A DNA stretch of 40,000 bases, from assembly GCA_963845065.1 (NCBI GenBank), contig CAWJQQ010000001.1, positions 811,540 through 851,539 of the forward strand, given 5' to 3'. Made by a program: the position numbers and the translations under genes. The stretch is from Nitrospirota bacterium (GTDB lineage: Bacteria; Nitrospirota; UBA9217). Every line of letters starts with the position of its first letter. Positions within the stretch are counted from its first letter, which is position 1. Positions 2,886-22,472 of this stretch are shown piece after piece. A model generated the notes under the pieces. That model searched no databases and was not told the DNA's origin. It saw only the letters and a program-made list of their open reading frames with translations.

Positions 2886-4891
2886 GTGAAAACAAACCAT
2901 GCCTACGTGAGGTATAGGAGATGCCTACTCGACCAACACTTATAGAATCAACCTGAATTTGTAAAAGCGCCGGGATAAACCGGCATAGAGTCGGGGGTGA
3001 AAGTCCCCTACGTGAAAGGATGAGCTGATCCATCATGGCCTCGAGTCATGCGCGGGCAGTCGTGAGATTGCACGTGAAGCGTTGACAGAGGAAACGCAGG
3101 CCAGCCATTGAGCTCCGAAATCCGGTGATTCGGGGTGCCGACCGCGTACGAATGCTGGGAAGGCACTACTGGCAACGCCGCTATCCAGCCAGACGTTGCC
3201 CGACCCCGCGGAGTCAGAGAACCTGAGCATGCGTGGATACTCTATGTTCGAGAACTGGGAGAGCTCAGCAGCTCCCGCTAGGAAACATTAAGCGGGACGG
3301 TAAGGGAAGGCCTGTGGCCGCGATCCTTATATGCACGCTGCTGAGCAGTCTGACATCGGCGTACTACCTAAGAAGGTGCCGAACAAAGCTGCATGTTCCC
3401 CATGCGGCGGCGGAGGCTCTGGAGGGAAGGCTGATGACCAAGGGGAAATTCTGGAAAGTCGTCTGCGACCTGTACGCAGAGACAGGGGTAAGCATTGAAC
3501 GGACTTGACGGGATACGTGAAGCAGCGGCAAGGGATGGGAACCTTCGTTTCACCAGCCTCATGCACCATATCACAGAAGAAATGCTTCGGGATGCTTACA
3601 ATGCGCTCAAACGCAACGCGGCAGCCGGGGTAGACGATGTGACATGGCAAGAGTACGGTGAGGGACTGGATGTCCGGATAAAGGACCTCCACGATCGGGT
3701 AAAGAGTGGCAGGTTCCGAGCAAAGCCTTCGAAGCGGGTATGGATACCCAAGCCGGACGGTCGTCAAAGACCAATCGGCATAGCCGCACTTGAGGACAAG
3801 ATAGTCCAACAAGCGGTGGTGTGGGTACTGAGCCATATCTACGAAAAGGACTTTCTCGGTTTCAGCTACGATTTCGACCGGAGCGTAGCCAGCATAACGC
3901 GCTGGATGCGATATGGATGGGAATCACCCGAATGAAGGTAAACTGGGTGCTGGATGCGGACATAAAGAGTTTCTTTGACACGATCAATCATGCGTGGCTG
4001 ATGAAGCTCCTGGAACGTCGCATCGCAGACCCCCGGATGCTCCGCCTGATCCGAAAGTGGCTCAGGGCCGGAGTATCGGAAGACGGCGAGTGGTCAAAGA
4101 CGGAGGTAGGCACGCCGCAAGGGTCAGTCATATCGCCCTTGCTCAGTAATATCTACCTGCATTACGTTCTTGACAAGTGGGTAACAGAATGGCGAAAGAA
4201 CAAAGCAAACGGTGAAGTAATCATCGTTCGCTACGCCGACGATTTCGTCATGAGGTTTCAATACCGGAGCAGTGTGGAACGTTTCCTGCAAGAAATGAAG
4301 AAACGATTCGCCGCTTTCGGGCTTGAAATTCACAGCGAAAAGACCCGGCTCATCGAGTTCGGACGGTTCGCGGAAGCAAACCGCGCCGAGCGGGGAGAAG
4401 GGAAGGCTGAAACGTTTGACTTTCTCGGGTTCACGCATATCTGTAGCAGGACCTGGAAGAACAATCGTTTCACTATACACCGCAGAACAATCGCCAAACG
4501 TCTTCGGGCAAAGCTGAAGGAAGTGAGAAAAGAGCTTATTCAACGCAGGCATGAGCCGGTGCCGGTACTTGGTAAGTGGCTCAGGTCAGTGGTACAGGGT
4601 CATCTCAATTACTTCGCGGTGCCCGGCAACATAAAGGCATTACAGGCGTTTCGCACGGAGATAAATAAGGCATGGCTCTTCGCGTTAAGGCGCCGCAGCC
4701 ATAAGGCCAGAAATCTAACGTGGGACCGGATGAAATGCCTAATAAAGACGTGGATACCCGCAGCCAAAATCAAGCACCCGTACCCGCACCAAAGGCTTTG
4801 CGTGAACCACCCGAGGTAAGAGCCGTGTGAGGTAGTGCCTCTAGCACGGATCCGTGCGGGGGGCGTCCAGTAACGGACGCCCTACCGCGAT
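2886..4891 (+). mobile_element. Group II intron copy 1 (5' boundary uncertain, roughly 2815-2910; 3' end after domains V/VI)
   Basis: Domain V-like GAGCCGTGTGAGGtagtgCCTCTAGCACGGATC at ~4822-4853, followed by a domain VI-like hairpin with a bulged A (..GCCCTACCGCGAT, ending 4891). The RT ORF sits in domain IV. Domain I blocks (CATGCGC.., GTGAAGCGTtGACA, GAGCtCCGAAAT) are shared with intron 2. No clean GUGYG 5' end was found. Confidence 0.75.
3495..4819 (+). pseudogene. Group II intron reverse transcriptase/maturase, frameshifted (two ORFs 3495..3935 and 3821..4819); no En domain
   Basis: RT motifs RPIGIAALEDKIVQQAV, TPQGSVISPLLSNIYLH, VRYADDFV and the maturase X region. The frame breaks at ~3870, where tacgatttcg would read SYGFRPERSQHNALDA if it were tacGGatttcg. 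Confidence 0.85.
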
Positions 4892-6730: not shown

Positions 6731-9202
6731 TTGAATATCAGGAAAAAGCTGTATGGCAGCGTTTTTGTCACGATAATTGGGATCGGAGTGTTTCTTGCCG
6801 TCACTATCTATGCGAACTCCAGAATCCGTTCGGCGGTTGACATCATGACCGAAAAAACCACACCCCTGCAGGCAAAGGTCCTTGGATTGCAGCAGGAGAT
6901 CGAAAAGATGTCAGCGAATTTTCTGCGGCTCAGCTACGTTACGGACAATGCCGATTTCAAGCAGGTATCAGACAACATCGGCATAAACATAGTTAATATC
7001 GAAAGGATAAATGCAGATATCCAGCAACTAGGTAACAGTTCCACCGGGACAGACACATCGCCTCTGAAAAATATCCATTCTACCCTATCCAGAGTCTCCC
7101 AGCAGAGGATTACAGACATTGCTGCATTCAAGACCGGGATATCAGACGTCAATTCACAGATCAAGGTGACCGGGGCCGCCTATTCCAACATAATCGAAAA
7201 ACTTACCGTACTACGTTTGGAAGGCATTCGAACGAGTAGGGAATCAGAGGAATTCAGCAACAAGACTAATGCCGCGATTAGAAAGATACTTGTCCTTCAA
7301 TCTAAGCTAGTAGAAATTGAAAAGCTAGTAAGCGATGTTGAATCGGTCAGCAACAAATACAAGCTTTCTCCGTATAAGGAAAATGCCAAAGCGATCACTG
7401 ACTCTGTAGACGAAGTGACTTATACAAAGGACGACCCGGTTGTCATTAAAGATATAAAATACGCTGCAAAAGATATGTATAAACTGATCGTGGGGGAAGA
7501 AACCGGCGTTATCCCGCTTAAATGGGCGATACTTTCAGGTAACAGCGTTACAGGGCAGTATCAAGCGCAAAAAGCTAATATATCCAAATATGTCGAGGGT
7601 TTGCTTGTCAGGGTTTCCGAAACCATGGATCAGCTCGAGATTCAACGTATGAAGGGGAAACAGCAGGCAAACAAATCGGTGAGCGTGAAACAAACTGTAG
7701 CTGCTATCGAAGATGTCGTAAGCGCGGGTAACGACATGAACCTTAACATCAAAGAGCTTAACAGCCTTGTCAGACTGGCAATGCTCAGCTCTTCGAATGC
7801 TGAGCTCCAGAAAACCGCATCCGACATAGTAAAGGTCCGGGAGAAGATTGCTGAAAATATTAACGGCATGTTGTCCTTGCTCAACAAAATGGGCCAGGAG
7901 AGCCTTTCAAAAGATACTTCGGAGATGCGGCAGACATTGAAGAATGTAGATGCGGCGATTGAAAGAATGCTCTCCGCGAAAAGGGGCGTCCTTGAAGGCG
8001 ATGCCGAGATGCAAAAGGTTATAAGTCAAGTCAATGTGATTGCTGGAGAAAATGCCAGAAGGGCAGGAAATGAGGTTAAGGACATAGAGTTGAAGCAGCA
8101 GGACATAATGAACGAGGTCAAAGTCACTATGAATCAGACGCTTTTGATTATCGTAATGACGGTGGTCGTCGTCCTAGGGTTCGTTACAGTTACCAGCATC
8201 ATTACAGCAAGAGGAGTTATAAAAGGAATAAGCGAAACCGAAAAGCTTATTAAAGATGTTTCGACCGGCAACCTTGCAGTGAAGATCCATACTAAGAGCC
8301 GTGACGAAATAGGAGTTATGAGCGCTCAGCTGAACAGCCTTGTAGAAAAACTCAAAGAGATCGTCACCATCATCTACGACAAAAGCAATGCTGTTACACG
8401 CTCTGCAATGGAGATCGCAACCACAAGCACGCAACTCCACCAACGAGCGACCAATCAGGCTGAGGAGGTGACGATCCTCTCAGCTTCCGCGGAACAGTTA
8501 TCTGCAACGACCTTAGACATGTCCAAACATTCTGTACAAATAGCCGAATTCACTGCAACTACCAGTCGTATGGCCGATGAAGGCGGCAAAGAGATCTTAC
8601 ATGCGCTCACCGGCATCGTATCAGTCTCCGCCGCAGTCAGTGATATTTCCATTGCAATGAAAGAGCTTTCCACGAACTCGGACCGTATAGGAGAGATCGT
8701 TACCACCATAAAGGCCATCGCCGACCAAACGAACCTGCTCTCCTTAAATGCGGCCATCGAGGCTGCCCGAGCCGGGGAACAAGGGCTGGGATTTGCTGTT
8801 GTTGCCGACGAGGTACGGAAGCTTGCGGATAAGACTGTGGCCGCCGCAGAAGAGGTCTCAGATATCGTACGAACCATTCAATCTGAAACAGGTGCAGTTG
8901 AAAAGTCGGTCAAAAGAGGGATCGATTCCGTCGATTCTGCTATAAAGCTGACCAATAAGTCCGGTGATACGCTGAAGCACATTATTGGCGGCATCAATCA
9001 AATTACAGAGATGATCGACCAGATAGTTCCATCCATTTCAGAACAGTCCTCCACAACCAATTCCATGACCTCCAATATACTGCATATCAATAATGTTACG
9101 TCTGAATTCGCTGCCGCGATGCAAGGCATGACAAGAGCATCGACAGGCCTTGACGCCATTGCACAGGAACTGCAGTCCACTCTGAAGCACTTTCAGATAT
9201 GA
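6731..9202 (+). CDS. Methyl-accepting chemotaxis protein with a very long (~470 aa) helical periplasmic domain, HAMP and MA signalling domain
   Basis: TM-ectodomain-TM topology; HAMP (..[25 protein letters not shown]..); canonical hairpin tip [41 protein letters not shown] start after GAGGTGA. Confidence 0.95.
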
Positions 9203-9210
9203 AAAGCTTT

Positions 9211-9852
9211 TTATAGAGCCCCTATTTCATATAGCGCATAGCGAAGATCTGATTTTCCCTGTTTGGAAATGACCGGGGTCGCTGAATATGATGTCTTCCC
9301 GCTCCGATTCGCACAGAGGTCAAGACCGGCCATTTTCAACACCTGCTTCGCACTCGTAAACCGGTGAGGATTCCCGATAACCCCCAAGACCTTAGCGGAA
9401 AGAGCTGGCCCGAATCCTGGAATGCTCAAGAGGTATGTGTACTCGGGAAACTCCAGGCAAACATTCTCAAGTTTGTTTTCCACCGACTTGATGGTTTGTC
9501 AAAGCTACCTCAAACTGTCCACCATGACTTGGGCCTCAAATGATGCCGCTTCTCTCATGGTGCCGCCGATGGAGTCGACCGCTGCCCTCCAGATTGCCCC
9601 GACCCGGCGCCACGGTGCGGCAGAATGTGTCGTATTCCATTCCGGCAATTGCCGACGGATCGAGGCATTCTCGCACCACTGACAGGGTCTCTAAAGGGCC
9701 AAAGTGGTGGTCCAGCTCAGGGAAATATTGAGCAAGGAGATTATTATGGATACACGCGCTTATACCGTGTTTCCGCTTTTTCAGTCTCCGCTTGAGTACT
9801 ATGAGCGTGCGAACATTCCGCAGTGTCATCAGGGGATACTCGTAAAACAGGC
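9211..9852 (-). pseudogene. IS110-family transposase, middle and C-proximal part (C-terminus truncated; frameshift and in-frame stops)
   Basis: ..LFYEYPLMTLRNVRTLIVLKRRL.. and ..LLSIPGFGPALSAKVLGVIGNPHRFTSAKQVLKMAGLDL..SGKT..ISKQGKSDLRYALY (Transposase_20-like). The 9484-9620 segment reads AIWRAAVDSIGGTMREAAS..VDSLR*L*QTIKSVENKLE with TAG and TGA in frame. Confidence 0.8.
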
Positions 9853-9880
9853 ATAATGCAGAGTATATTGTTATGCGGAG
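9853..9880. repeat. RIT left terminal inverted repeat (contains two 10-bp subrepeats TAATGCAGAG and TTATGCGGAG, 7 bp apart)
   Basis: Read directly. Confidence 0.95.
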
Positions 9881-9908
9881 CCCGCTTTTCGCAGGCCCCG
9901 CAAACAGG

Positions 9909-10928
9909 TCATTTTGACGTCTTTTTACTCCGCATAAAATTGCTAGGCCGCAGCGAGGCAATCAATTTATCGGTTGCCTTGAACCTTCCAGATCGTAACT
10001 TGGGAGCGACAATAGACTCTAAGGTTTCTAGCTTCACCGAAGGATCTGCCCGCGTGTACATTTCAGTTGTTTGCAGGTTCGAGTGCCCGAGCCAGAGAGA
10101 GACTTTTCGTATATCGTTTGTGGCCTGCAGAACCGTTAACGCGCAGGTATGACGCAGCACGTGCGGCGAAACTTGCTTCGTTGATAGAGAAGGGCAGCAC
10201 CTTGCCCCGGTGTGAGTATGCTTACGCAGAATGTATTCGAAGCCGGAGCGGGTCATGGGTTGGCTACGAGCGTTGAGAAACAGTTCCGGCACCAAGGCCA
10301 TACCCCTGACTGCCAGCCATGCTCTTAGCGTCGATGTCGTATCCTTCCACAAAGGGAGGCATCGCTCTTTTCGGCCCTTGCCGTGAACCATAATGCTGGC
10401 GTGCGGTTGAAGTGTCAGGTCGTCAATTCGCAGCCCGATCAACTCGGAGACGCGCAAGCCTCCGGCGAAGCAGAGGTGAATCATGGCGCGATCTCTGATA
10501 CCATCTCGCTTAGTTGGTTCAGGCGCGTTTAGGATGGCCTGCATCTCTTCAGCCGTGAAGTGCTTGACAAGGCGTGTATCTGCTTTCTTTGATGGAATCG
10601 CCAAAATACGCCGGATCTGTTCTAAGGCCGTCGGCACACGATATTCCATAAAATGCATAAACGACTTAATGGCGGCCAGTCGAATGTTTCTGGAGCTCGG
10701 CCCATTCCCACGATTTTCTTCCAGATGGTTCAGAAAACTCACAATTAGTGGCGCGTCGAGTTGTTCCAAACACAATTCCGACGGAGAGATCTTGAGGCAG
10801 TTACTTGCGTATTCAAAGAGCATTTTGAAAGCATATGCATAGGACTCACAAGTGTTGTCACTAGCGCGGCGTTCGATTGGCAGTCGTTGCTGCAGAAAAG
10901 CCGTGATATGTGATGAGATCGGAGTCAT
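9909..10928 (-). CDS. Tyrosine recombinase, third gene of the RIT trio
   Basis: Start chosen at MTPISSHITAFLQQ, where ATGA overlaps the upstream stop. Motifs LRVSELIGLRIDDL, HVLRHTCA, LGHSNLQTTEMYTRA (R..HxxR..Y). Confidence 0.9.
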   Translation of the reverse strand: MTPISSHITAFLQQRLPIERRASDNTCESYAYAFKMLFEYASNCLKISPSELCLEQLDAPLIVSFLNHLEENRGNGPSSRNIRLAAIKSFMHFMEYRVPTALEQIRRILAIPSKKADTRLVKHFTAEEMQAILNAPEPTKRDGIRDRAMIHLCFAGGLRVSELIGLRIDDLTLQPHASIMVHGKGRKERCLPLWKDTTSTLRAWLAVRGMALVPELFLNARSQPMTRSGFEYILRKHTHTGARCCPSLSTKQVSPHVLRHTCALTVLQATNDIRKVSLWLGHSNLQTTEMYTRADPSVKLETLESIVAPKLRSGRFKATDKLIASLRPSNFMRSKKTSK

Positions 10929-11833
10929 AGCCGCCCTCCTGAGGTGAAAGTTTCGCAACGTTCTATGATGCTCCTCATCAGATCCGGCGTCGCTTCCAAA
11001 TACCAGTAGGTATGGGAAACATTGCTGTGACCGAGATAGGTTGACAGCGCCAACATATGTTTTGTGATACGCTCGCGGCCATCCGGGCAAGTTTCCAGGG
11101 CTCTTACAGCGAAGGTGTGGCGTAATGAGTGAGGTGTGGGTCGATGTAGCCTCGGTCCTCGCCGCAGCCCGATCTTGTCGACCGCAGTCTGGAATGCGGT
11201 TTCAACATCACGAAGAAGCAGTGGCTTTCTGCGCAACGAAACGAATACGTGATCATCGAAGGGGGCGTAGGGGCGGCGGTGTTTGAGATAACGTTCGAGT
11301 CCAGCCTGCGTGGTTTCGTGCAGGGGCACGAGGCGACTTTTGTGAAATTTGGAACACTGGATCACCAAACCATCTGGGGTGATGTCCTCAAAGCGCAGCC
11401 GGAGTGCTTCGGACACACGCAGTCCCGTGCATGCCAGCAAAGCGAATAGCGTGCTGTAGGTATGTTGACGCAAACAACAGGAACCGGACTGAGATGCCGC
11501 TTGCACGAGACGGTTGATGTTGTCCTGAGAAAAAATGTAAGGGGTGGGCCGCGACTGTCTCTCGCTACCAAAGACAGCCGGCGGCAGCTCATGGGATTGA
11601 TCCTCGGCACGGACATGCCGAGCGAATCGAATTACATGACCGAGCCGAGCAGCGCGCTGGTGGACCGATCTCGCCAATCCGGCCCACTCTATTGCGATTT
11701 CAGAGCAGACGTGCCGCTTGCCTTTTGCATTTGAGAAGGTGGCAAAACTTCGTAAAAAAGTGCTTTGGGGTTTAAACTCGAACCCGCAAGCACGACGCAC
11801 AGCCAGATATGACTCCACAGCTTGAGCTAACAT
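10925..11833 (-). CDS. Tyrosine recombinase, second gene of the RIT trio
   Basis: Start chosen at MLAQAVESYLAVRR, overlapping the upstream stop. Motifs LRVSEALRLRFEDI, HSLRHTFA, LGHSNVSHTYWYLE. The longer ORF-track N-terminus lies inside the upstream gene. Confidence 0.9.
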   Translation of the reverse strand: MLAQAVESYLAVRRACGFEFKPQSTFLRSFATFSNAKGKRHVCSEIAIEWAGLARSVHQRAARLGHVIRFARHVRAEDQSHELPPAVFGSERQSRPTPYIFSQDNINRLVQAASQSGSCCLRQHTYSTLFALLACTGLRVSEALRLRFEDITPDGLVIQCSKFHKSRLVPLHETTQAGLERYLKHRRPYAPFDDHVFVSLRRKPLLLRDVETAFQTAVDKIGLRRGPRLHRPTPHSLRHTFAVRALETCPDGRERITKHMLALSTYLGHSNVSHTYWYLEATPDLMRSIIERCETFTSGGRL

Positions 11834-13092
11834 GGCTGCACCTCCGGCCAGGGTTGAGAAATCTGTCGTAGAGCGGTCACGTCTACTTTTGCGTAGATTT
11901 GCGTAGTCTCGATTGAGCGGTGCCGAAGGACGGCCGCAATGTCCTGCAGCGATGCTCCTTGCCGCAACATGAAGGTTGCCACGGAATGCCGAAGAAGGTG
12001 GGCCGCACCCCTGCTTTGGCAAGAGACGCCCGCTCGGCGCATCGCCTGAGTAACGATGGACGATATGGCGGAACTGCGTGAGAAGGCGCGAAAAGGCGCG
12101 AGAGAGCGGACAAACAGTACATCTGTGTAAGTTTGAGGACGGCCGCCTTGCAGGTAGCCCACTACCGCATGGCCAACCTCCTGGGTCAGAGGCAGCCGAG
12201 TCTGACGACGTCCTTTTCCAGACACCTGAATACTGGCTTCTTCCCAATTTATATCGCCCAAGCGAAGCCGGACGATATCTCCCGCCCGAAGTCCCAGGCG
12301 GGCGAGGAGAAGTAGAATCGCACGATCCCGCCTGCCGACTGGTGAGCTCGAATCACAGGAACTAATGATACGCTCCACCTCTTCAGGCTGCAGGTACCGC
12401 GGTAGAGAGGAAAGACGCCAATGCGCCAGGACCGGAATGGCTGTATCAAGATCATCAGCACACTTGCCTTCAGCGATTAAAAAGCGAAGAAACATGCGAA
12501 GTGCTGTCGTACACATTTTTGCTGATGCCCATCCCGAACGTCGGCCTTTCTCCAGGACGAACTGTCGCAAGCTCTGTGCATCAAATTTGGATGGATCCTC
12601 TCCAAGGTGTATTAGTAACTCTCGAATAGGAAGGCTGTATCTGTTGAGGGTAGGATCACAGGTTCCGCGCTGCTGGCGCATCCACTGACGGAATGCAGCG
12701 AGCAGAATCGGATCCTGATCTGTTGTTTTAGCAACTGAAGCGGTAATTACGCCCGTGCTTCGCAGATGTCTCAAAAAAAAGCGAGCACTTTTAAGCACGC
12801 TCAATCGGTCGGCGTGTGCATAGCCCGGGCATCGGCATCGAGCCAAGTGGCGGTCGAAACGCTCAAGATTGTTTTCGAACGAACCTGAGATCTGTATGCC
12901 TTTTCGATCCGTCCAATAAACAACATGCTCCGCCGCACTGATGTACTTGCGGGCGGTTACCTCTGCATATCCCTCCTGGTAAAGCTCTTCAGTGAACCTT
13001 TCAAGTAACGGGCCACCCGAACCTTCGCGAAGCGCTTGAACTCGCGAATGGCGCTTGAAATACTGTTGAAACATGATGTCCTCCTTTAACAT
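11827..13092 (-). CDS. Tyrosine recombinase, first and largest gene of the RIT trio
   Basis: 421 aa; N-terminal SAM-like core-binding region; LRAGDIVRLRLGDI, HLLRHSVATFML, LRHRSIETTQIYAKV. Confidence 0.9.
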   Translation of the reverse strand: MLKEDIMFQQYFKRHSRVQALREGSGGPLLERFTEELYQEGYAEVTARKYISAAEHVVYWTDRKGIQISGSFENNLERFDRHLARCRCPGYAHADRLSVLKSARFFLRHLRSTGVITASVAKTTDQDPILLAAFRQWMRQQRGTCDPTLNRYSLPIRELLIHLGEDPSKFDAQSLRQFVLEKGRRSGWASAKMCTTALRMFLRFLIAEGKCADDLDTAIPVLAHWRLSSLPRYLQPEEVERIISSCDSSSPVGRRDRAILLLLARLGLRAGDIVRLRLGDINWEEASIQVSGKGRRQTRLPLTQEVGHAVVGYLQGGRPQTYTDVLFVRSLAPFRAFSRSSAISSIVTQAMRRAGVSCQSRGAAHLLRHSVATFMLRQGASLQDIAAVLRHRSIETTQIYAKVDVTALRQISQPWPEVQPC

Positions 13093-13199
13093 GAATTTAG
13101 GGTCAGGAAGACATCACTATTATGCGGTGTAACTAAATTTGCAAGACGATTCTACTCCGTTGAAATAATTGCATTGTCGTCGGTCTCCAAGGTTCACCT

Positions 13200-13227
13200 C
13201 TCCGCATAACAATATACTCTGCATTAT
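13200..13227. repeat. RIT right terminal inverted repeat
   Basis: CTCCGCATAACAATATACTCTGCATTAT is the exact reverse complement of 9853-9880. Confidence 0.95.
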
Positions 13228-13233
13228 ACTTAG

Positions 13234-13267
13234 GCTTCTTTCTGAAATGCCTTATTCAGAAAGAAGC
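13234..13267. repeat. Perfect 13-bp-stem hairpin GCTTCTTTCTGAA-atgcctta-TTCAGAAAGAAGC at the left end of the IS91-like unit
   Basis: Read directly. Confidence 0.85.
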
Positions 13268-13527
13268 TGGTTGAACTATGCCGTACGCGCCACGACGCTA
13301 TGGGATTTCAAATGATTTTTCTCTTTAAAGCGAGGGTATTGAGTACTGCATCGGCTGGGGCATAAGGCCTGTGACGGGTGATTTTCGAGTGAGAAGAAGC
13401 GATTCAAGGCAATTTCGCAATCCCAACTCGCAGGAAAAATGTCCTTTGGACAATAGAATATTGTTGCGAAGAACATGACCGTTTTCGGATTGGGATAGGG
13501 AGGCTGTTTTTTCGGTTTGAGTGATGT

Positions 13528-14721
13528 TCATATGCGTGGCGGTCCTTTGCAACGAGCAGGCTGTATAATCTCCATGGTATGCATTTTTCGTTCACCGCAG
13601 GCAGGACATAATGCGATGTCGATGCCGGTAAATCGGAGTAAAGCTTCTTGCCACGTTTCTGTCTTCTGTTCCGATTCGTTCTGATTGGCGCAGGCCAGAA
13701 GCTCTCTGCACCGGTCGAGTTTCTTCCTGCGGCATCTGTTCCCCAATAAGCTGTAATGTCTGATTTTCACAAACTTGTCAGGCAACACATGAAGCAGGAA
13801 CCGCCGGATGAACTCATCGGCTTTAAGGGGCATGATCTTGATTTTGTTGTTATCGGAGTAATCGCGCCACCAGAAAGAGACTTCGTCGTTTTCGAGCTTC
13901 ACGAGCCGGTGATTGCTGATCGCGATCCGGTGAGTGTATCTGCCGAGATACTCAAGAACATCCTTGGTCCCATTAAAGGGTGGCTTGCAGTAAACGATCC
14001 ACTTCTTTTTATACAGGTCGGTGATTAAGGCATTGAAAGCCCCCGGCGACGCAAAATGACTTATGTCGCCGGGGTAAACGAGTTTGTTTTCGACGCGAAG
14101 CTTTTTCAGATAAGCGAGGAACTTTCCCCGAAAAAGATTCGACATCACCTTGACGTGGACAAAGAAGTCATTCTTGCATGACTTCCATTTCCGCCCATCA
14201 CTGGACAATCCTCCGCCAGTGACGATGTTGTGAATGTGGGGATGGTTCAAGACGTTCTGACCCCAGGTGTGCAAGATGCTGGTGAACCCGATCTCCGCCC
14301 CCAGGTGTTTCGGGTTTTTCGAGAGTTCCGTCAGAGTCTCCGAAACGGCTTTGAACAGGATCCCATAGAGGACTTCCTGATTCCGGAGGACAAGAGGATT
14401 CAGTTTGTCAGGAATGGTGAAAACAACGTGAAAGTACGGTATGGGAAGTAGGTCTTTTCCCCGGTCCTCAATCCACTTCTCCTTTTTCAGAAACTGGCAT
14501 TTGGGACAGTGCCGGTTTCTGCAGGAGTTGTACGAGACCATCTTTGTCCCACAGTGCTCACACTCATCCACGTGGCCACCCAAATCAGCTGTGCGGCAAG
14601 TTTCTATTGCGCGCATAGCGCGAAGACGATTCACGGGCATGGGATGGGCGCTGCGGTAATCAGGGCCGTACCGGCGGAAGATATCCGCAACCTCAAGCTG
14701 TCTGACTTCTCGTGCACACAT
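13528..14721 (-). CDS. IS91-family rolling-circle (Y2/HUH) transposase with N-terminal zinc-binding domain
   Basis: CxxC..CxxC cluster (CEHCG..CRNRHCPKC), HUH-like HPHIHNIV, YLGRYTHRIAISNHRL tyrosine motif. Confidence 0.9.
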   Translation of the reverse strand: MCAREVRQLEVADIFRRYGPDYRSAHPMPVNRLRAMRAIETCRTADLGGHVDECEHCGTKMVSYNSCRNRHCPKCQFLKKEKWIEDRGKDLLPIPYFHVVFTIPDKLNPLVLRNQEVLYGILFKAVSETLTELSKNPKHLGAEIGFTSILHTWGQNVLNHPHIHNIVTGGGLSSDGRKWKSCKNDFFVHVKVMSNLFRGKFLAYLKKLRVENKLVYPGDISHFASPGAFNALITDLYKKKWIVYCKPPFNGTKDVLEYLGRYTHRIAISNHRLVKLENDEVSFWWRDYSDNNKIKIMPLKADEFIRRFLLHVLPDKFVKIRHYSLLGNRCRRKKLDRCRELLACANQNESEQKTETWQEALLRFTGIDIALCPACGERKMHTMEIIQPARCKGPPRI

Positions 14722-14743
14722 GGCGAAGCGACAAGCGGTCCGG

Positions 14744-15601
14744 CTACGAAGTCTTCTTGGAGTTAGAGGAATTGTCGATATCGAGAGGACTCACGATCTT
14801 TGATAGGTTTTTCTTGCTCACGTGGAGGTAGATCGTGGTCGTCCTGATCGATGCGTGGCCCAACAGCAGTTGAATGTTATAAAGGTCCACCCCGGCCTCG
14901 AGCAAATGTGTTGCAAAGCTGTGTCTCAGGCTATGGCAGCTTGCGGACTTGATGATGCCGGACTTGCGTTTCGCGCGTTTGAACGCTTGCTGGATGGTGG
15001 TAATGCTTATGGGCTGTCCAGGAATTCCTCCTGGGAAGAGCCAGTGTTTAGGGAGATACTTCTTAAAGTACTCTCGGAGTGTCTCTAGGGTGCGCTTCGA
15101 CAACAAGGTATACCGATCCTTTTTCCCTTTGCCTTGTTCTACACGGAGAAGCATACGCTTACTGTCGATGTCGGATATTTTGAGATGGGCGGTCTCGCTT
15201 ACCCGGAGGCCTGCGGAGTAGGTTACCATCAGCATCGCGCGCTGCTTCAGGCCGCCAGCGGACATCAGTATGGTTTCGACTTCGTTCCGTTCGAGAACGG
15301 TGGGAAGCTTTTTGGCCGACTTTGGATAGGGTATCTTGTCCATCACCCATCTTTTTTTGAGCGTGGTTTCATAAAGAAACCGCAGCGCGGCGTAGGTGAT
15401 TTTCAAAGAGGATGGGGATAGTTTCCTGTTCTGGACGACGGACAGCAGGAACGACTTGATGTCGTTCTGCCCAAGACGGTCGGGCGGCTTGTTGAAATGC
15501 AGCTCTAAATAGCGAGCTGCCCGGTGATACGCCTCTTGCGTATGCGGACTAAAGTTACGAAGCACCATATCGCCTTGCATCTGTTCTTTGAACGTTTCCA
15601 T
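14744..15601 (-). CDS. Tyrosine recombinase/integrase (XerD-like) paired with the IS91-type transposase
   Basis: LRVSETAHLKISDID, HSLRHSFATHLLEAG, LGHASIRTTTIYLHV. Confidence 0.9.
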   Translation of the reverse strand: METFKEQMQGDMVLRNFSPHTQEAYHRAARYLELHFNKPPDRLGQNDIKSFLLSVVQNRKLSPSSLKITYAALRFLYETTLKKRWVMDKIPYPKSAKKLPTVLERNEVETILMSAGGLKQRAMLMVTYSAGLRVSETAHLKISDIDSKRMLLRVEQGKGKKDRYTLLSKRTLETLREYFKKYLPKHWLFPGGIPGQPISITTIQQAFKRAKRKSGIIKSASCHSLRHSFATHLLEAGVDLYNIQLLLGHASIRTTTIYLHVSKKNLSKIVSPLDIDNSSNSKKTS

Positions 15602-15793
15602 TGCACAATCTCCTTCCGCTGACTTGAAATTCCAACGGCGTGACGCCGGTGGTGATGCGAGGGAAAATTGTAAATCAGTAGGGATTGTGAAGCAATATGT
15701 GAGAGCGTGATATTATTTGGAGATAATTGCGAAGGGATTGCAGATAAAATCAGTGGTGAGTGAAGAGTACCGCCGCGTAGCGGCTTAGTTCAA

Positions 15794-15825
15794 TGCCTGT
15801 AATGCGGTGCACCGCATTACAGGCA
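15794..15825. repeat. 32-bp perfect palindrome TGCCTGTAATGCGGTG|CACCGCATTACAGGCA at the right end of the insertion
   Basis: Read directly. It contains two inverted copies of the TAATGCGGTG motif related to the RIT IR subrepeats. The outer 7 bp overlap the IS110 target duplication. Confidence 0.9.
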
Positions 15826-16032
15826 CTTCCCCTGGGTGATGAGATCAGCGACATTTGCAGCATCCTTGACATCATGATTGTCCCAGCGGCCGTCCAGAAG
15901 CTGCCGGTTGTTCCTGACCGCGACGACTCCTACAAGAACAACCATGTGCCCGCATTTGATCAGATGCTCCGCCAGGGGCTTGTGGTAGTTCGCTGTTGGT
16001 TCGATGCCAAAGACGATTTTCGTCAGACTCAC
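15819..16032 (-). pseudogene. IS110-family transposase, N-terminal part (continues at 9852 once the 5.97-kb insertion is removed)
   Basis: (GTG)MSLTKIVFGIEPTANYHKPLAEHLIKCGHMVVLV..DVKDAANVADLITQGKCL. Joining to 9846 restores ..GKCLFYEYPLMTLRNV.. in frame. Confidence 0.85.
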
Positions 16033-16034
16033 AT

Positions 16035-16319
16035 TTGCTTAGTAACATTCACTTGCACTACGTCCTTAACACATGGGTACAAAATTAGCGAAAGAACAAA
16101 GCACGCGGTGAAGTGATTATCGTTCGGTACGCCGACGACTTTGTGATGGGGTTTCAACACCGGCACGAAGCGGAGCTATTTCTGGAAACGATGAGGAAGC
16201 GCTTCTCCGAGCACGGTCTGGAAATCAACAGCGAAAAGACCCGGCTCATCGAATTCGAGCGGTATGCAGAAGTAAATCGCGCCGAGCGAAGAGAAGGGAA
16301 GCCGGAAATTGCAGTTTAA
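16035..16319 (+). pseudogene. Remnant of a third group II intron RT (RT5-RT7 region only), with TGG>TAG in frame
   Basis: LLSNIHLHYVLNTWVQN*RKNKARGEVIIVRYADDFVMGFQ..LEINSEKTRLIEFERYAEVNRAERREGKPE is collinear with 4141-4420 of intron 1 but clearly diverged. It is truncated at both sides. Confidence 0.85.
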
Positions 16320-16423
16320 ACTTGTGGCGTTGATTTGCTCCAGAATTCTGCGATAGTATTATCTTTTGGAAATTGAAGACTTAACATTAGAAATTTGCAG
16401 CGCAAACCTCGACAATAATCAAG

Positions 16424-18639: not shown

Positions 18640-19659
18640 TTAGTGTACTTTCTCCTCGCTCACAGCGACCGGTTTAGGCTTGTTAATCCAAACGGCGTCT
18701 GGTAATGAGGGAGGAACAGGAACTTTTTTCACGAACCGCTCAGGATGTGCCTCATAGGCGGTACGAAGCACCTCGCCCCTGGCTTTCAGCACGTCCAGCG
18801 CGAGTCCGTAGTGGACAGACTCCGGCGTGAGCAGCCCAATGCCGGAGTGATGATGCTCGGTATTGTACCAGGGGAAAAAGACCTGGCAGAATCCCCGGCC
18901 GTCCTCAATGCAGCCGAACCGATCGGGGAAGTCCGGCCGGTACTTGAGCGTTTTGAACTGAGACTCTGAAAAAGGATTGTCATCGCTCGTATACGGTCTG
19001 CTGTGGGTCTTGGTGACGCCCAGATCGGCCATGAGCAAGGCGACCGGTTTCGACCTCATGGACGAGCCACGATCCGCATGTATTGTGAGCTGCCCTTTTT
19101 CTATATTCTGCTTGGCGCAGGTTTCCTTGATAAGCTTTTCCGCCAAGGCAGCCGATTCCCTGGGGGCGACCATCCAGCCGACGACGTAGCGGCTGAAGAT
19201 ATCCAGGATCACGTAGAGGTAAAAATAGGACCATTTTGCCGGGCCTAAAAGCTTGGTAATGTCCCAGGACCAGACTTGGTTCGGCGCAGTAGCCAGAAGC
19301 TCCGGCTTCTGATACACGGGGTGGCTGAGCTGGTTCCTGCGCTCCTTGACCTCCTGGTTCGCGTCGAGGATGCGGTACATGGTGCTTATAGAGCATTGAT
19401 ATGCGCCTTCATCCAATAGGGTTGCATAGACCTCCTGGGGCGCCTTGTCCACGAACCGCTCAGAATGAAGGACGTCAAGTACGTCTTGCCGTTCGTCTGA
19501 AGACAGAGCACGCGGCGGGCTCGGACGTTTCGTCGGCTCCATGGGAGGCGCATTTTTCCGCGCCTGTGTCCGGTAGAACCCGGAACGAGGGATGTCGAGC
19601 GATGCACATGCTGATTTGATCCCGATATCAGAGGAAAGAGTATGGGCGGCTTCCATCAT
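18640..19659 (-). CDS. IS3-family transposase OrfB (DDE integrase core)
   Basis: WSWDITKL..HADRGSSMRS..YNTEHHHSGIG. The frame stays open upstream through the A9 run. Confidence 0.9.
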   Translation of the reverse strand: MMEAAHTLSSDIGIKSACASLDIPRSGFYRTQARKNAPPMEPTKRPSPPRALSSDERQDVLDVLHSERFVDKAPQEVYATLLDEGAYQCSISTMYRILDANQEVKERRNQLSHPVYQKPELLATAPNQVWSWDITKLLGPAKWSYFYLYVILDIFSRYVVGWMVAPRESAALAEKLIKETCAKQNIEKGQLTIHADRGSSMRSKPVALLMADLGVTKTHSRPYTSDDNPFSESQFKTLKYRPDFPDRFGCIEDGRGFCQVFFPWYNTEHHHSGIGLLTPESVHYGLALDVLKARGEVLRTAYEAHPERFVKKVPVPPSLPDAVWINKPKPVAVSEEKVH

Positions 19660-20159
19660 TCGTTCTTTCCACTCTCGTCGGTCGCAATCGGGATCCCCAG
19701 AATCGCCGATATTTTTTTTTGAACATCGATGATGATTTCGGCCTGCCTGAGGCGATTGGTAAGCCGGTCATTCTCCTTGCGGAGTTTCTCGTTCTCTACC
19801 CGCAAAGGATTCCGGACGGTTTCCTTTCGTCCCCGTTTTTTGGGCGCGAGGCCGGATAGTACGCCGCGATCGCGCTGACCTCGCCAAGTGTTGAGATTTG
19901 ATGCATAGAGTCCTTCACGGCGCAGGAGCTCACCAAGGCACCCAGGCTCATTGCAGGCATCGGCCAGTGTCAGAACGCGCAGCTTATATTCAGCCGTAAA
20001 ACGTCGCCGGGCGGCTTTAACCGGAACTTCTGGATCAGGTGGGGCCGCAGCAGCACCATGAAGCAAACTGACTTCTTTAGGTGCTCCTCCCCAGGGAACC
20101 TCAGTCGCCCTACGGGCTCCTTCGTTTCCCTGGGATGCTTTGATCTTTGATGCTACCAT
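19656..20159 (-). CDS. IS3-family transposase OrfA (HTH)
   Basis: RRRFTAEYKLRVLTLAD..LLRREGLYASNLNTWRGQRD, followed by a leucine-zipper-like tail. Its stop overlaps the orfB ATG (ATGA). Confidence 0.9.
   Translation of the reverse strand: MVASKIKASQGNEGARRATEVPWGGAPKEVSLLHGAAAAPPDPEVPVKAARRRFTAEYKLRVLTLADACNEPGCLGELLRREGLYASNLNTWRGQRDRGVLSGLAPKKRGRKETVRNPLRVENEKLRKENDRLTNRLRQAEIIIDVQKKISAILGIPIATDESGKNE
19712..19720 (-). promoter_or_regulatory. A9 slippery run (CAA AAA AAA A), candidate -1 programmed frameshift site producing OrfAB
   Basis: T9 on the plus strand. orfB is in the -1 frame relative to orfA and is open across this site. Confidence 0.6.
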
Positions 20160-20816
20160 ATAGATTTCTCCTCCCCGCCCTCTACTCTAATTTACCACAG
20201 GGGAGGTGTCTCAGTTATATTGACACAGAGGGGTGTTGAGGGGACTGAAACTTATCAATGGACAACAGGAGCGCGCCTTCATAACGATAGAGCGCCCTTT
20301 GAAAGCACTATTTTTCGGAATGAGTAATCTGAGTGATGGCACATAAATCGTCATCACTTAATCCGTTCTACCTGGCAAATCGGGGAAAATAAAAAAAGAT
20401 AACAAAAGGAGAATATGTTAATCATGTCTATGCGGGTTACAAACCGAATCTGTTGATTGTTGCAAACAATTAGAATTACACACTTGAGGTGTACCTTACA
20501 GAGATCCTAATTTTGATCGAAGTGCAGAATCGGTAGTAACTATAAGTGCGATATTCTTACAGAAGCATGCATGCTTTAGACTGCACGGATTGCACAATAC
20601 ATCTATTCTTTCTCTTCTCAAGTTCCCGAATCATGCATGTCCATTATCGCTTCAATTCAGTTGCTATTAAAATCGTTATGCAAAAATTCATTCCTATTTT
20701 GGGGGAATGTGCGGAGAGAATTATGAGATAAAGTAAGAGGGGAGCGCCCGGTTACAGCCCGAGTACTGCCCCTTGGAGCTGAAAAATATTTATTTTATTG
20801 AAAATATATAAAATAT

Positions 20817-20848
20817 TGGCGGGAGAGCATGAGAATCGAACTCGTGCA
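20817..20848 (-). other. tRNA 3'-end-like fragment (T-arm plus acceptor plus CCA), not a complete tRNA
   Basis: Minus strand GCACGAGTTCGATTCTCATGCTCTCCCGCCA: a TTCGATT T-loop, a stem with one C/A mismatch, and an acceptor-like GCTCTCC(C)GCCA. No D or anticodon arms upstream. Confidence 0.3.
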
Positions 20849-20988
20849 TATGCATAATATATCAATGACTTACAGACTTATACGGTATGTTCACGGTATG
20901 AAATGAATTAACAGGATAAAGAGTCATCGTTAATTTTTTCAGATTCATCGTGTTCTGGAGCCATTGACATAAGAATTTGAGAGGGAAA

Positions 20989-21149
20989 TTACGGGAAATA
21001 TTTATAAATGTCTTTGCGATTTAGGAACCGCACGAGGATGACGGAATCATTCTTCAATACTAGGCCGAGCCGATAATCTCCGACTCTTAGACGGAAGTAG
21101 TTGTCCTGTCCCTTAAGCTTTTTTAAATTAGAAATAATAGAGAGGGAAT
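20989..21149 (-). pseudogene. RelE/ParE-family toxin gene, C-terminal piece (split by the IS4 element; extra A in an A7 run)
   Basis: ..KKLKGQDNYFRLRVGDYRLGLVLKNDSVILVRFLNRKDIYKYFP*. Confidence 0.75.
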
Positions 21150-22472
21150 CAGTAATGTCCGGTTACGTTTTTGCATGGAGAATGCCTTCTCCGGACATTT
21201 TATAGCAGTCACGGTCAGGCGGCACGTTCTCAAACTCAGTAGATTCATTTTTGATTTTGCAGCGTAGCTCTCTGACCCTTTTTATACTGACTTTCTCATT
21301 GTGCTGTTCGTGGCAATAAATAGCGAGAAGCAGGTAGGTGATGAGGCCTCCCAGTATTTGGACCATGAGACCATGCTTGCTTCTTGCAATCAAGTGATAG
21401 ACCTTCAAATGGCGTTTCCACCAGCCGAAGAAGGTTTCTATGTTCCATCGGAGCTTGTAAACCAGCGCTACCTCCTCGGCTGAAAGATCGTACCGATCGG
21501 TAGCAACCCAGTATTCTTTATTCGCGACACGATAGGCGACTACACGGAGTTCTTTTTCCGTTTGATTCACGCCTTTGGTCCCGAGCAGGACAACGGCGTC
21601 ATAGAAAACAATGCTTCCTGGCTTAACGGTATTGGCCTTGATAATAGTAATCGTTGTGTTTTCTTTGATCCGGCAGACAAAATATTTTCTCTCAATCTGC
21701 CACTGATCGAAGCTCTTATGCCGCTGATAGTAACGATCCAGAACACTGGTCTGACCCGGAGAAATAATCTGGCTTACAAAAGGGCGTTCATCTCCTTTGC
21801 CGTGGGTCAAAAATATCTTCGTCGGAATACCACGATTGATATCGAAGCCTATATGCGTCTTGGCTTTTTTTGAGCCGCCCCGATAATCGGCCCAGTGCAT
21901 GGAAAGGACTGCATCTATCAAAGATCCATCAACGGCGATAAGGTCGCCGAGATTGCCGTATTCAGTCGGAAGCAGCTTGGTGGCTTTGGCTTGGAGTGCC
22001 AAATATAATTCCATAAGTTGATCAAGGCCTCTTGAATTAATGGCCTCGAAAAAACTGCTTTTATTAATACCGGATTTCGGCGCAATCGTCTGTCGGGCAA
22101 AATCATCTTCCTTGAGGACTTGCAACAGGTGACGACCTGAAGTGTGTTCCTCAAGGTGAAAGTAAATGAGCGCATGAAGCTGATCTTCAAATTCCATTTG
22201 TAGCGGCCTGTTTCCTCGTGCCTTAAGTAGCGTGATGTCGCTTAACGGCGCTTCCAGCGGTTGAAGCAGAAGGCTGAATGATGGTCGTTTGCCTGATTTG
22301 TTCTTCGGATCGAGCACATAGGGCATTTTCGTAACTCCTTGCAGTTAAAGGTATTTACGAAAATTTTTTCTGTGCACGTTTTTCTAAATGTCAAGTTAAT
22401 AGCGACCGAACATTAGAATGTTATGCTTTTTTATTGTCTCCTTTGAATGCAATTTGCTAACCGGACAACGCT
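21150..22472 (-). mobile_element. IS4-family insertion sequence with 10-bp target duplication GAGAGGGAAT
   Basis: Direct repeats at 21140-21149 and 22473-22482. Ends CAGTAATGTCCGGTTA.. and ..TAACCGGACAACGCT share inverted TGTCCGGTTA. Confidence 0.85.
21163..22326 (-). CDS. IS4-family DDE transposase
   Basis: LIAVDGSLIDA, VLDRYYQRH, YKLRWNIETFFGWWKRHL (Y-R-E-K signature). Confidence 0.9.
   Translation of the reverse strand: MPYVLDPKNKSGKRPSFSLLLQPLEAPLSDITLLKARGNRPLQMEFEDQLHALIYFHLEEHTSGRHLLQVLKEDDFARQTIAPKSGINKSSFFEAINSRGLDQLMELYLALQAKATKLLPTEYGNLGDLIAVDGSLIDAVLSMHWADYRGGSKKAKTHIGFDINRGIPTKIFLTHGKGDERPFVSQIISPGQTSVLDRYYQRHKSFDQWQIERKYFVCRIKENTTITIIKANTVKPGSIVFYDAVVLLGTKGVNQTEKELRVVAYRVANKEYWVATDRYDLSAEEVALVYKLRWNIETFFGWWKRHLKVYHLIARSKHGLMVQILGGLITYLLLAIYCHEQHNEKVSIKRVRELRCKIKNESTEFENVPPDRDCYKMSGEGILHAKT

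Follow-up and report, generated by a model that had tools for sequence, protein, structure and literature searches.

Gene content of the locus

The stretch of DNA considered here, called the window throughout, is 40,000 nucleotides of the genome of a Nitrospirota bacterium (GTDB lineage UBA9217; NCBI GenBank assembly GCA_963845065.1, contig CAWJQQ010000001.1, positions 811,540 to 851,539 of the forward strand), numbered from its first letter. In it, a 5,972-bp block made of a RIT element, which carries a trio of tyrosine recombinase genes, and of an insertion sequence (IS) of the IS91 family lies inside a transposase gene of the IS110 family. All five genes of the block are on the minus strand: ritC (9909-10928, 339 aa; Pfam Phage_integrase, E = 5e-32), ritB (10925-11833, 302 aa), which shares 4 nt with ritC and 7 nt with ritA, ritA (11827-13074, 415 aa), the Y2/HUH transposase gene of the IS (13528-14721; Zn_Tnp_IS91 and Y2_Tnp) and a fourth tyrosine recombinase gene (14744-15601; Phage_integrase). 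The trio consists of three open reading frames (ORFs) matching PF00589 in the order ritA-ritB-ritC. RitA, called as 415 or as 421 aa, has two N-terminal SAM-like core-binding domains in tandem, matched in Pfam by Phage_int_SAM_4 (residues 29-109) and Phage_int_SAM_1 (residues 134-209). Read from the translations, the catalytic pattern R..HxxR..Y is kept in all four tyrosine recombinases, and RitA, RitB and RitC show the motifs GLRxxE/D, HxLRH and (G/R)H..TT..Y. The three Rit proteins have been described as simple, Xer-like tyrosine recombinases, and the tandem core-binding domains of RitA as a criterion for RIT elements (PMC8138268).

The trio is enclosed by perfect inverted repeats of 28 nt (9853-9880 and 13200-13227). 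The terminal repeat on the ritC side, 9854-9880, contains two direct motifs, TAATGCAGAG and TTATGCGGAG, separated by 7 bp, and each RIT end has a third, inverted subterminal motif (TTATGCGGAG at 9928-9937, minus strand; TTATGCGGTG at 13120-13129, plus strand). As the preliminary description of this locus stated, the repeat on the ritA side, ending at 13227, is followed by TACTTA. At the opposite border of the block lies a perfect 32-bp palindrome (15794-15825), TGCCTG TAATGCGGTG CACCGCATTA CAGGCA. Its parts are an inner spacer TGCCTG (15794-15799), which is the inverted copy of the 6-mer flanking the block and abuts the RIT inverted repeat in relatives, a 20-bp palindrome of two RIT motifs (TAATGCGGTG | CACCGCATTA, 15800-15819), which is the canonical outer end of the RIT clade, and an outer 6-mer CAGGCA (15820-15825), so that the right-hand copy of the flanking repeat is nothing other than the outer six bases of the palindrome. 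The consensus TWATGCRGWG occurs eight times in the window against 0.65 expected, a number that 0 of 100 shuffles reach, and all eight occurrences are in the RIT ends (three each) or in the palindrome (two). Because the centre of the palindrome is two copies of this motif, matched by both arms, the right-hand end of the block is built of putative RIT binding motifs. As single-stranded DNA the palindrome folds at -17 kcal/mol (z = -6.6). A role as a transcription terminator was ruled out, since a T-run follows it on neither strand. In terms of sequence, the features by which RIT elements are recognised are all found in the window, namely the order and overlaps of the trio, the RitA domains, the 28-nt repeats with the palindrome, and the R-H-R-Y residues.

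A precise insertion into an IS110 gene

The IS110 gene can be put together again. If the 5,972 bp are taken out and rc(15826-16040) is joined to rc(9211-9853), the minus-strand parts 15826-16032 and 9211-9853 read in one frame, ..NVADLITQGKCLFYEYPLMTLRNV.., as had been claimed for the two fragments, which match DEDD_Tnp_IS110 (PF01548) and Transposase_20 (PF02371). When the joined sequence served as a protein query, intact IS110 transposases of 435 aa were retrieved at up to 89% identity, among them P0002, which has both domains. Its gene (locus L010, 87% nucleotide identity) supplies the empty site, CCCAGGGGAAG-TGCCTGT-TTTACGAGTATCC, with the 7-mer once and the alignment free of gaps. Bases were neither gained nor lost at the junction, which answers the check on an uninterrupted copy that had been proposed, and the 5,972-bp block is therefore one precise insertion into the IS110 gene. 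The N-terminal part of the interrupted gene (15826-16032, minus strand; Pfam DEDD_Tnp_IS110) and the C-terminal part (9211-9847, minus strand; Transposase_20, alignment to L010) are a relic: about 50 N-terminal and at least about 60 C-terminal residues are missing, as estimated from alignments and Pfam coverage, and alignment to L010 reveals a 29-bp deletion, a frameshift and internal stops. The point of insertion is in the codons K-C-L|F-Y-E, and the restored site of this copy, here called type 1, would read ..CAGGGGAAGTGCCTGTTTTACGAG... It was also considered that IS110 had targeted the RIT palindrome, as IS4321 does at Tn21 ends, and this was ruled out by intact homologues with a continuous ORF across the site.

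ACAGGCA is present at both edges of the block (9847-9853 and 15819-15825), and in this respect the direct repeat of 6-7 bp reported before is there. Its true unit is 6 bp, as in relatives: CAGGCA on the plus strand, at 9848-9853, where it is native IS110 sequence (TGCCTG in the sense of the gene, codons Cys-Leu), and at 15820-15825. The seventh base is shared by coincidence, the first T of the RIT arm being equal to the next base of IS110. That 6 bp should agree by chance at two fixed junctions has a probability of 1/4096. The 6-mers are identical at the two outer ends, and thus the repeat does bracket the whole block and not the trio alone, as the preliminary description held.

Canonical architecture of RIT elements

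What does the outer end of a RIT element look like where the IS91-like unit is absent? A scan for RitA in 185,579 species genomes gave 60 loci, and a scan of JGI metagenomes with a pattern (palindrome, N6, then RIT arm or IS end) gave five more, all five being other RIT lineages of canonical architecture. About 50 trios have full-length matches, each Rit protein to its own counterpart at 50-84% identity, and in 0 of these ~50 relatives was an integrase/IS91 unit or an IS110 gene found beside the trio. The loci with palindromes number 29 and hold 33 of them, each 20 bp long and made of two RIT-type arms (e.g., TTATGCGGTG|CACCGCATAA); the arm of the RIT inverted repeat lies exactly 6 bp away from the palindrome in every case except the distant locus L067. 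The window is unique among the RIT loci in that its 6-mer is followed by other DNA, the TTGAAC.. of the IS. If t stands for the local 6-mer, relatives are arranged as flank, t, palindrome, inverted t, inverted repeat to inverted repeat, t, flank; at L014, for example, as ..ACC AATCTG, palindrome, CAGATT, RIT, AATCTG CCC... Of the 21 elements with both ends, 13 have the same 6-mer at the outer and the far end, and 15 have two that differ by at most one base. For 17 of the 33 palindromes, the 6-mers to either side are perfect inverses of each other, although their sequence varies between elements. Since the palindrome stands 6 bp from the repeat in 29 loci without an IS91 unit, and inside the flanking repeat there, it is the normal end of a RIT element; the outer end in the window is not an alternative one by which a neighbour became mobilised, as had been supposed. 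The claimed geometry of two arms around 6 bp is borne out in the same comparison, being contiguous in every related locus but the distant one, so that the predicted junction CACCGCATTA-CAGGCA-TAATGCAGAG is more than a prediction.

The palindrome is on the ritA side in some relatives and on the ritC side in others. Two contigs of one metagenome-assembled genome, L045 and L046, have the same target and the same palindrome side while their trios are oppositely oriented. Together with the window and its copy at L087 described below, this is in line with a RIT body that either is invertible or integrates in either direction. Palindromes with mirrored flanks on both sides are found at L029, L035, L051 (on the complete chromosome OZ253507.1) and L004, and also at L037, the mirror images extending up to ~300 bp, and L019 has no palindrome and two 'right-hand' flanks. 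Such double-palindrome and palindrome-free elements look like products of reciprocal recombination between inverted copies. An array at L001 (11495-14531) comprises, in this order, IS copy A, a RIT end in inverted orientation that includes a 3' fragment of ritC (90% identity), IS copy B (98%), 108 bp of a further inverted RIT end that begins exactly from the third motif (the counterpart of 13120-13129 in the window), and an IS110 C-terminal part that is 77%-diverged. The crossover point of this rearrangement is exactly at the boundary of the third motif, as would be expected for cleavage between arm and spacer. The RIT loci of pHG1 and pBN3 were not used, as their ends, rearranged by nested elements, are unreadable.

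As to how far these elements are spread, relatives of RitA occur on 317 plasmid records and in dozens of phylogenetically diverse genomes. The window's RitC was found by exact look-up as an identical protein on 20 contigs, the 421-aa ORF of RitA returned no record in such a look-up, and a megablast of 9000-16400 against plasmids returned only one match, of 146 bp at 77%, and no close relative.

Targets of the relatives

Removal of RIT and palindrome from L014, L020, L028, L040 and L045 restores an IstB-like ORF each time, with the break at ..TI(V/L)TT|NL|PF.EW.., and the relatives' targets match IstB_IS21 in Pfam (E = 1e-50 and 5e-29). The 6-mer that flanks the elements in istB is the local codon pair Asn-Leu or Asn-Arg (L014, L020, L028, L040, L045/L046). 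Thus, most of the relatives checked hit one conserved position in istB of IS21, and other targets are an AAA ATPase gene (L023), an unidentified gene (L042) and the IS110 gene of the window. The restored istB and IS110 genes suggest site-specific insertion into conserved codons, mostly of mobile-element genes, and the istB pattern points to a strong specificity for a gene of another mobile element. RIT elements were seen earlier inside the transposase gene of a Tn6049-like element (PMC3414803), in agreement with these targets.

The nested IS91-family element

The DNA between the inner spacer and the ritA-side repeat, 13228-15793 with ends uncertain by about 4 bp, is an IS91-family element on the minus strand. 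Its transposase matches PF14319 (E = 2.8e-33) and PF04986 (E = 2.4e-61), keeps the HUH and Y2 motifs as read from the translation, and has hundreds of relatives. A hairpin lies on the oriIS side (13234-13267) and a subterminal palindrome on the terIS side (15772-15784). The relative P0121 (90% identity in amino acids, 86% in nucleotides) forms, together with an integrase gene, a unit of 2,592 bp with the ends GTCATTGAAC...CTAAGCATT, which do not differ between its two contexts: it splits a SulP (sulfate-transporter) gene and a YD-repeat gene in RIT-free surroundings (L077-L082), making no target duplication. This unit aligns to the window from 15795 down to 13222/6, so that the IS fills all the DNA between the inner spacer (15794-15799) and the repeat (13227). 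Because the relative splits ordinary genes in the absence of a RIT and the unit here fills the exact gap, the IS91-like unit (~2.6 kb) is, judged by its relative, an autonomous insertion sequence nested in the RIT and not one captured by it. It had been described as a neighbour of the RIT; instead it sits exactly between the spacer and the inverted repeat that belong to the RIT itself, and its insertion point is the spacer/arm boundary of the RIT internal core, within 1-4 ambiguous bases.

The tetranucleotide GTTC or CTTG beside oriIS is not evident in the flanks, which read GTCT, ATGA, GTAT and TAAT; the target specificity of this subgroup may be different or looser. Non-identical ends, subterminal hairpins and duplication-free insertion, all found here, are features of the IS91 family (PMC13181058). 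With its Zn_Tnp_IS91 and Y2_Tnp domains, its non-identical ends and its hairpins the nested IS resembles IS91, IS801 and IS1294; it differs in having an upstream tyrosine recombinase gene, orf121 being replaced. This is presumably the IS91 subgroup with an upstream tyrosine recombinase listed in ISfinder. Three 17-nt direct repeats (TAAATCAGTAGGGATTG and variants) at 15671-15762, upstream of the integrase gene and near terIS, may be binding sites of the integrase that the IS encodes. The idea that the 44 bp between IS-like repeats and the RIT were a transduced flank was ruled out, for the autonomous relative contains the hairpin tail, and a third, diverged integrase/IS91 unit in L001 has no nucleotide similarity and was not used for defining ends.

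Copies of the composite in diverged IS110 genes

Exact look-ups of RitC and RitB located this RIT on two further large contigs from the same sample as the window locus. Copy 1, that of the window in type-1 IS110, reads IS110N, TGCCTG, palindrome, CAGGCA, IS, RIT, TGCCTG, IS110C (N and C standing for the N- and C-terminal parts of the target). Copy 2, on a 1.48-Mb contig (L087), reads IS110N, TGCCTG, palindrome, CATGCA, IS, inverted trio, TGCCTG, IS110C; its RIT is 99.9% identical to that of the window while its IS110 is 78.6% identical, and the latter joins in frame as ..DLIAQRKCLFYEYP... Copy 3 (L090) reads ..IS, RIT, TGCATG, IS110C, and provides a third IS110C flank, with which the palindrome-side junction TGCATG/CATGCA of L003 matches. 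At L001 a RIT end meets the 77%-diverged IS110 where the other insertions lie, the 6-mer there being TGCTTG. The flanking 6-mers, TGCCTG or TGCATG, track the local target. The palindrome-side junctions are TGCCTG/CAGGCA, TGCATG/CATGCA and TGCCTG/CATGCA, and since in the last of these the inner spacer lags, CATGCA standing within a TGCCTG site, this spacer appears to be carried by the element.

It had been proposed that integration is site-specific and that the IS91 unit is mobilised with the trio through an alternative end. The first part fits what is found: the IS appears to travel with the RIT, and three or more diverged IS110 copies hold the composite in one and the same codon, which favours a site-specific integration of RIT and IS together. 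The alternative-end route does not fit. A one-ended transposition of the IS91 element, dragging the palindrome and IS110N along, was ruled out because the IS110N flanks are only 80-92% identical to that of the window in copies whose IS is 99.5-99.9% identical (L003, the left part of L004, and L005). In L003 and L004, which are from two other samples, the left context is altered: near the equivalent of window 15927-15988 the IS110 N-part runs into a 56-bp inverted copy of its own sequence, beyond which lies a methyltransferase context. The rearrangement may be genuine, or the contigs may have been mis-joined at the 6-kb repeat.

A model of integration

How can one element have a palindrome at one end, a repeat at the other and the same six bases at both borders? 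The reading that we regard as probable is that of a canonical RIT element, with an IS91-family element nested in it, which integrates by tyrosine recombination at a 6-bp overlap. The inner arm of the palindrome, the 6-bp spacer and the adjacent arm of the inverted repeat would make up a complete dif-like core site, and the two half-sites at the boundaries would be the outer arm of the palindrome with t and the far repeat arm with t. RitA, RitB and RitC would exchange strands across the 6-bp overlap. Recombination between the boundary sites would release a circle with the junction CTCTGCATTA-TGCCTG-TAATGCGGTG, the mirror twin of the internal core (in longer form ..ATATACTCTGCATTA-TGCCTG-TAATGCGGTGCACC.., the internal twin being split by the IS in the composite), and this junction would recombine with a pseudo-site having the same or nearly the same 6 bp, which is K-C-L|F-Y-E of IS110 here and TTN|L-PF.EW of istB in most relatives checked. 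Accounted for in this way, the flanking repeat would be the shared overlap region and not a duplication generated by repair. Because the circle would have two identical cores in inverted orientation, integration could go through either, and the trio could come to lie in either orientation relative to the palindrome. The autonomous IS91-family element would have been inserted between the spacer and the repeat arm, splitting the internal core and leaving the outer sites intact, and the composite would since have reached this site in no fewer than three diverged IS110 copies, for which the simplest route is movement as a unit, the IS being a passenger.

Several points weigh against this. Support for it is comparative throughout. 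Perfect flanking repeats are absent in 8 of 21 relatives, and the IS110 flanks resemble the RIT arms little, agreeing at roughly 5-6 positions in 10. Copy 2 has its trio turned round with respect to palindrome and IS, even though the IS has destroyed the internal core on which the model relies for the two orientations; a further event is needed there, be it a crossover inside the 28-bp repeats or an exchange involving a different copy. Neither the match of the inner spacer to the target nor the two target-type flanks of copy 2 are explained by the model. The IS copies differ by ~3%, against 0.1% for the RIT bodies. Several of the supporting loci are metagenome contigs that break, or are possibly mis-joined, at the 6-kb repeat (L003, L004). 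The scan of JGI metagenomes found no circle junction, a weak negative as the samples with this lineage are ENA assemblies, and for the same reason its failure to find an IS-free copy of the window's RIT or a new target of the composite is weak. Besides, some of the points on RIT architecture made here may have been described in part by Ricker et al. 2013.

The divergence of the IS leads to a second possibility, that RIT and palindrome entered each IS110 gene separately and an IS91-family element later hit each internal core independently, the composite never having been mobile as a unit. The ~3% against 0.1% is compatible with it, and opposite trio orientations in copies 1 and 2 would be natural for IS-free RITs using either core. 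Elements of the IS91 family work on DNA in single-stranded form and choose specific targets (PMC13181058), and a hairpin of -17 kcal/mol adjoins the insertion point. On the other hand, the same nucleotide position and the same orientation would be needed three times, the sites of the autonomous relative are unrelated and share no tetranucleotide, and such an IS is present in 0 of ~50 other RITs. The differences, moreover, lie mainly in one patch of ~1 kb in the transposase gene (window 13828-14828 against L087, with up to 24 per 200 bp as opposed to 1-3 elsewhere), a pattern that is typical of gene conversion and suggests that it occurred among IS copies, and the type-3 junction of L005 carries an IS 99.4-99.5% identical to that of the window. 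Independent insertions of the IS are, on balance, unlikely.

We give about the same low probability to the possibility that RIT elements are a class of transposons integrating as folded single-stranded DNA, with the 32-bp palindrome as a hairpin recombination site and a specialisation for conserved codons of insertion-sequence genes. In a single-stranded circle, one side of a stem would be formed by the far repeat, t and the outer palindrome arm, and the other side by the inner arm, inverted t and the near repeat; this stem would exceed 44 bp and present one duplex core. If one strand were then exchanged and the product replicated, the order obtained would be exactly the one observed (t, palindrome, inverted t, RIT, t). 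The nested rolling-circle element of the IS91 type could supply or exploit the single-stranded form. Folded single-strand recombination sites are known from attP of CTXphi and attC of integrons. In a mobilome study RIT coverage was raised, circle junctions were not seen, and hairpin intermediates were speculated upon (PMC5737581).

It is rather improbable that the RIT proper ends at its 28-bp repeats and that the trio sometimes uses a foreign or alternative outer end, so mobilising a neighbouring integrase/IS91 unit. A flanking repeat around the whole block, RIT-type motifs in the outer end and the presence of the composite in several IS110 copies would all be expected from it, but the palindrome has the same 6-bp distance from the repeat, within the flanking repeat, in the 29 IS91-free loci, and the IS, autonomous elsewhere, fits the exact gap between spacer and repeat.

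Taken as sequence alone, the flanking 6-mers are compatible with a true duplication as well as with a shared overlap. Tyrosine recombinases make no repair-dependent duplications, and the only enzymes that the RIT encodes are of this kind. A target-site duplication of 6-7 bp made by staggered cuts and repair synthesis is hence hardly to be expected: copy 2, in which both flanks are the target's TGCCTG and the inner spacer CATGCA suggests a TGCATG donor, speaks for it, inasmuch as conservative exchange with a mismatched overlap is expected to leave one donor-type flank, while the geometry of arm, 6 bp and arm fits a crossover region and the imperfect repeats (8 of 21) fit heteroduplex segregation or carry-over as in Tn554 and SE elements (PMC10214605).

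Relation to known systems

RIT elements are known from work of Van Houdt et al. 2009/2012 and of Ricker et al. 2013. The block shares with them the gene order ritA-ritB-ritC with overlaps of 4 and 7 nt, the two core-binding domains of RitA and the 28-bp repeats with a palindrome at one end, as well as multiple near-identical copies per genome and insertion in mobile-element genes (PMC3414803, PMC8138268). It differs in holding a complete IS91-family element in its own core and in having as target IS110, not istB as in most relatives checked. At RIT ends, an inverted repeat of 28-29 bp has been noted together with an 'overlapping palindromic sequence' (PMC3414803). Transposition of a RIT has not been reproduced; the published overview enters 'NT' (not tested) both for its target specificity and for how it moves (PMC10214605, Table 1).

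With dif and the integrative mobile elements exploiting XerCD (IMEX: CTXphi, TLCphi, VGJphi), the RIT has in common two arms of ~10-11 bp around a 6-bp centre and Xer-like recombinases. We take its arms CCGCATAA and TTATGCGG, ending CGCATAA, to resemble the inner XerC arm of E. coli dif, GGTGCGCATAA. CTXphi makes use of a pair of dif-like sites in inverted orientation. In contrast to these systems, the RIT has three recombinases of its own and uses weakly arm-like pseudo-sites in insertion-sequence genes, not chromosomal dif. Tn554, SE and GInt elements likewise need several tyrosine recombinases and can carry a 6-bp crossover or coupling sequence from the donor to the new site (PMC10214605), and the CATGCA spacer of copy 2 in its TGCCTG site looks like such a carry-over; a counterpart of Tfp, Srap or TnpC is absent from the RIT, which has instead long inverted repeats and a palindrome. 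The relationship among the Tn554, SE, GInt and RIT groups is unresolved (PMC10214605).

The value of the locus is thus mechanistic leverage on a known and widespread kind of element, not a new class. Together with its relatives it supplies boundaries that include the palindrome, a 6-bp crossover region, a predicted circle junction and a 30-bp target with a verified empty site, and also natural experiments in the form of three insertions in diverged IS110 genes, both orientations of the trio and spacer carry-over. The data also show a preference of RIT elements for breaking up genes that belong to other insertion sequences (istB of IS21 and the transposase gene of IS110), and an IS in the internal core does not seem to stop the composite from spreading, possibly a route by which RITs acquire cargo.

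Neighbouring sequences

The surroundings in the window are a graveyard of mobile elements. The IS110 relic ends abruptly at ~16035, beside a reverse-transcriptase fragment. Fragments of RVT_1, of the group II intron type, are at 16113-16319 and 4139-4412, and a full-length reverse transcriptase ORF is at 23602-24963. Transposases of the rve type and of DDE_Tnp_1 lie at ~18640-22326.

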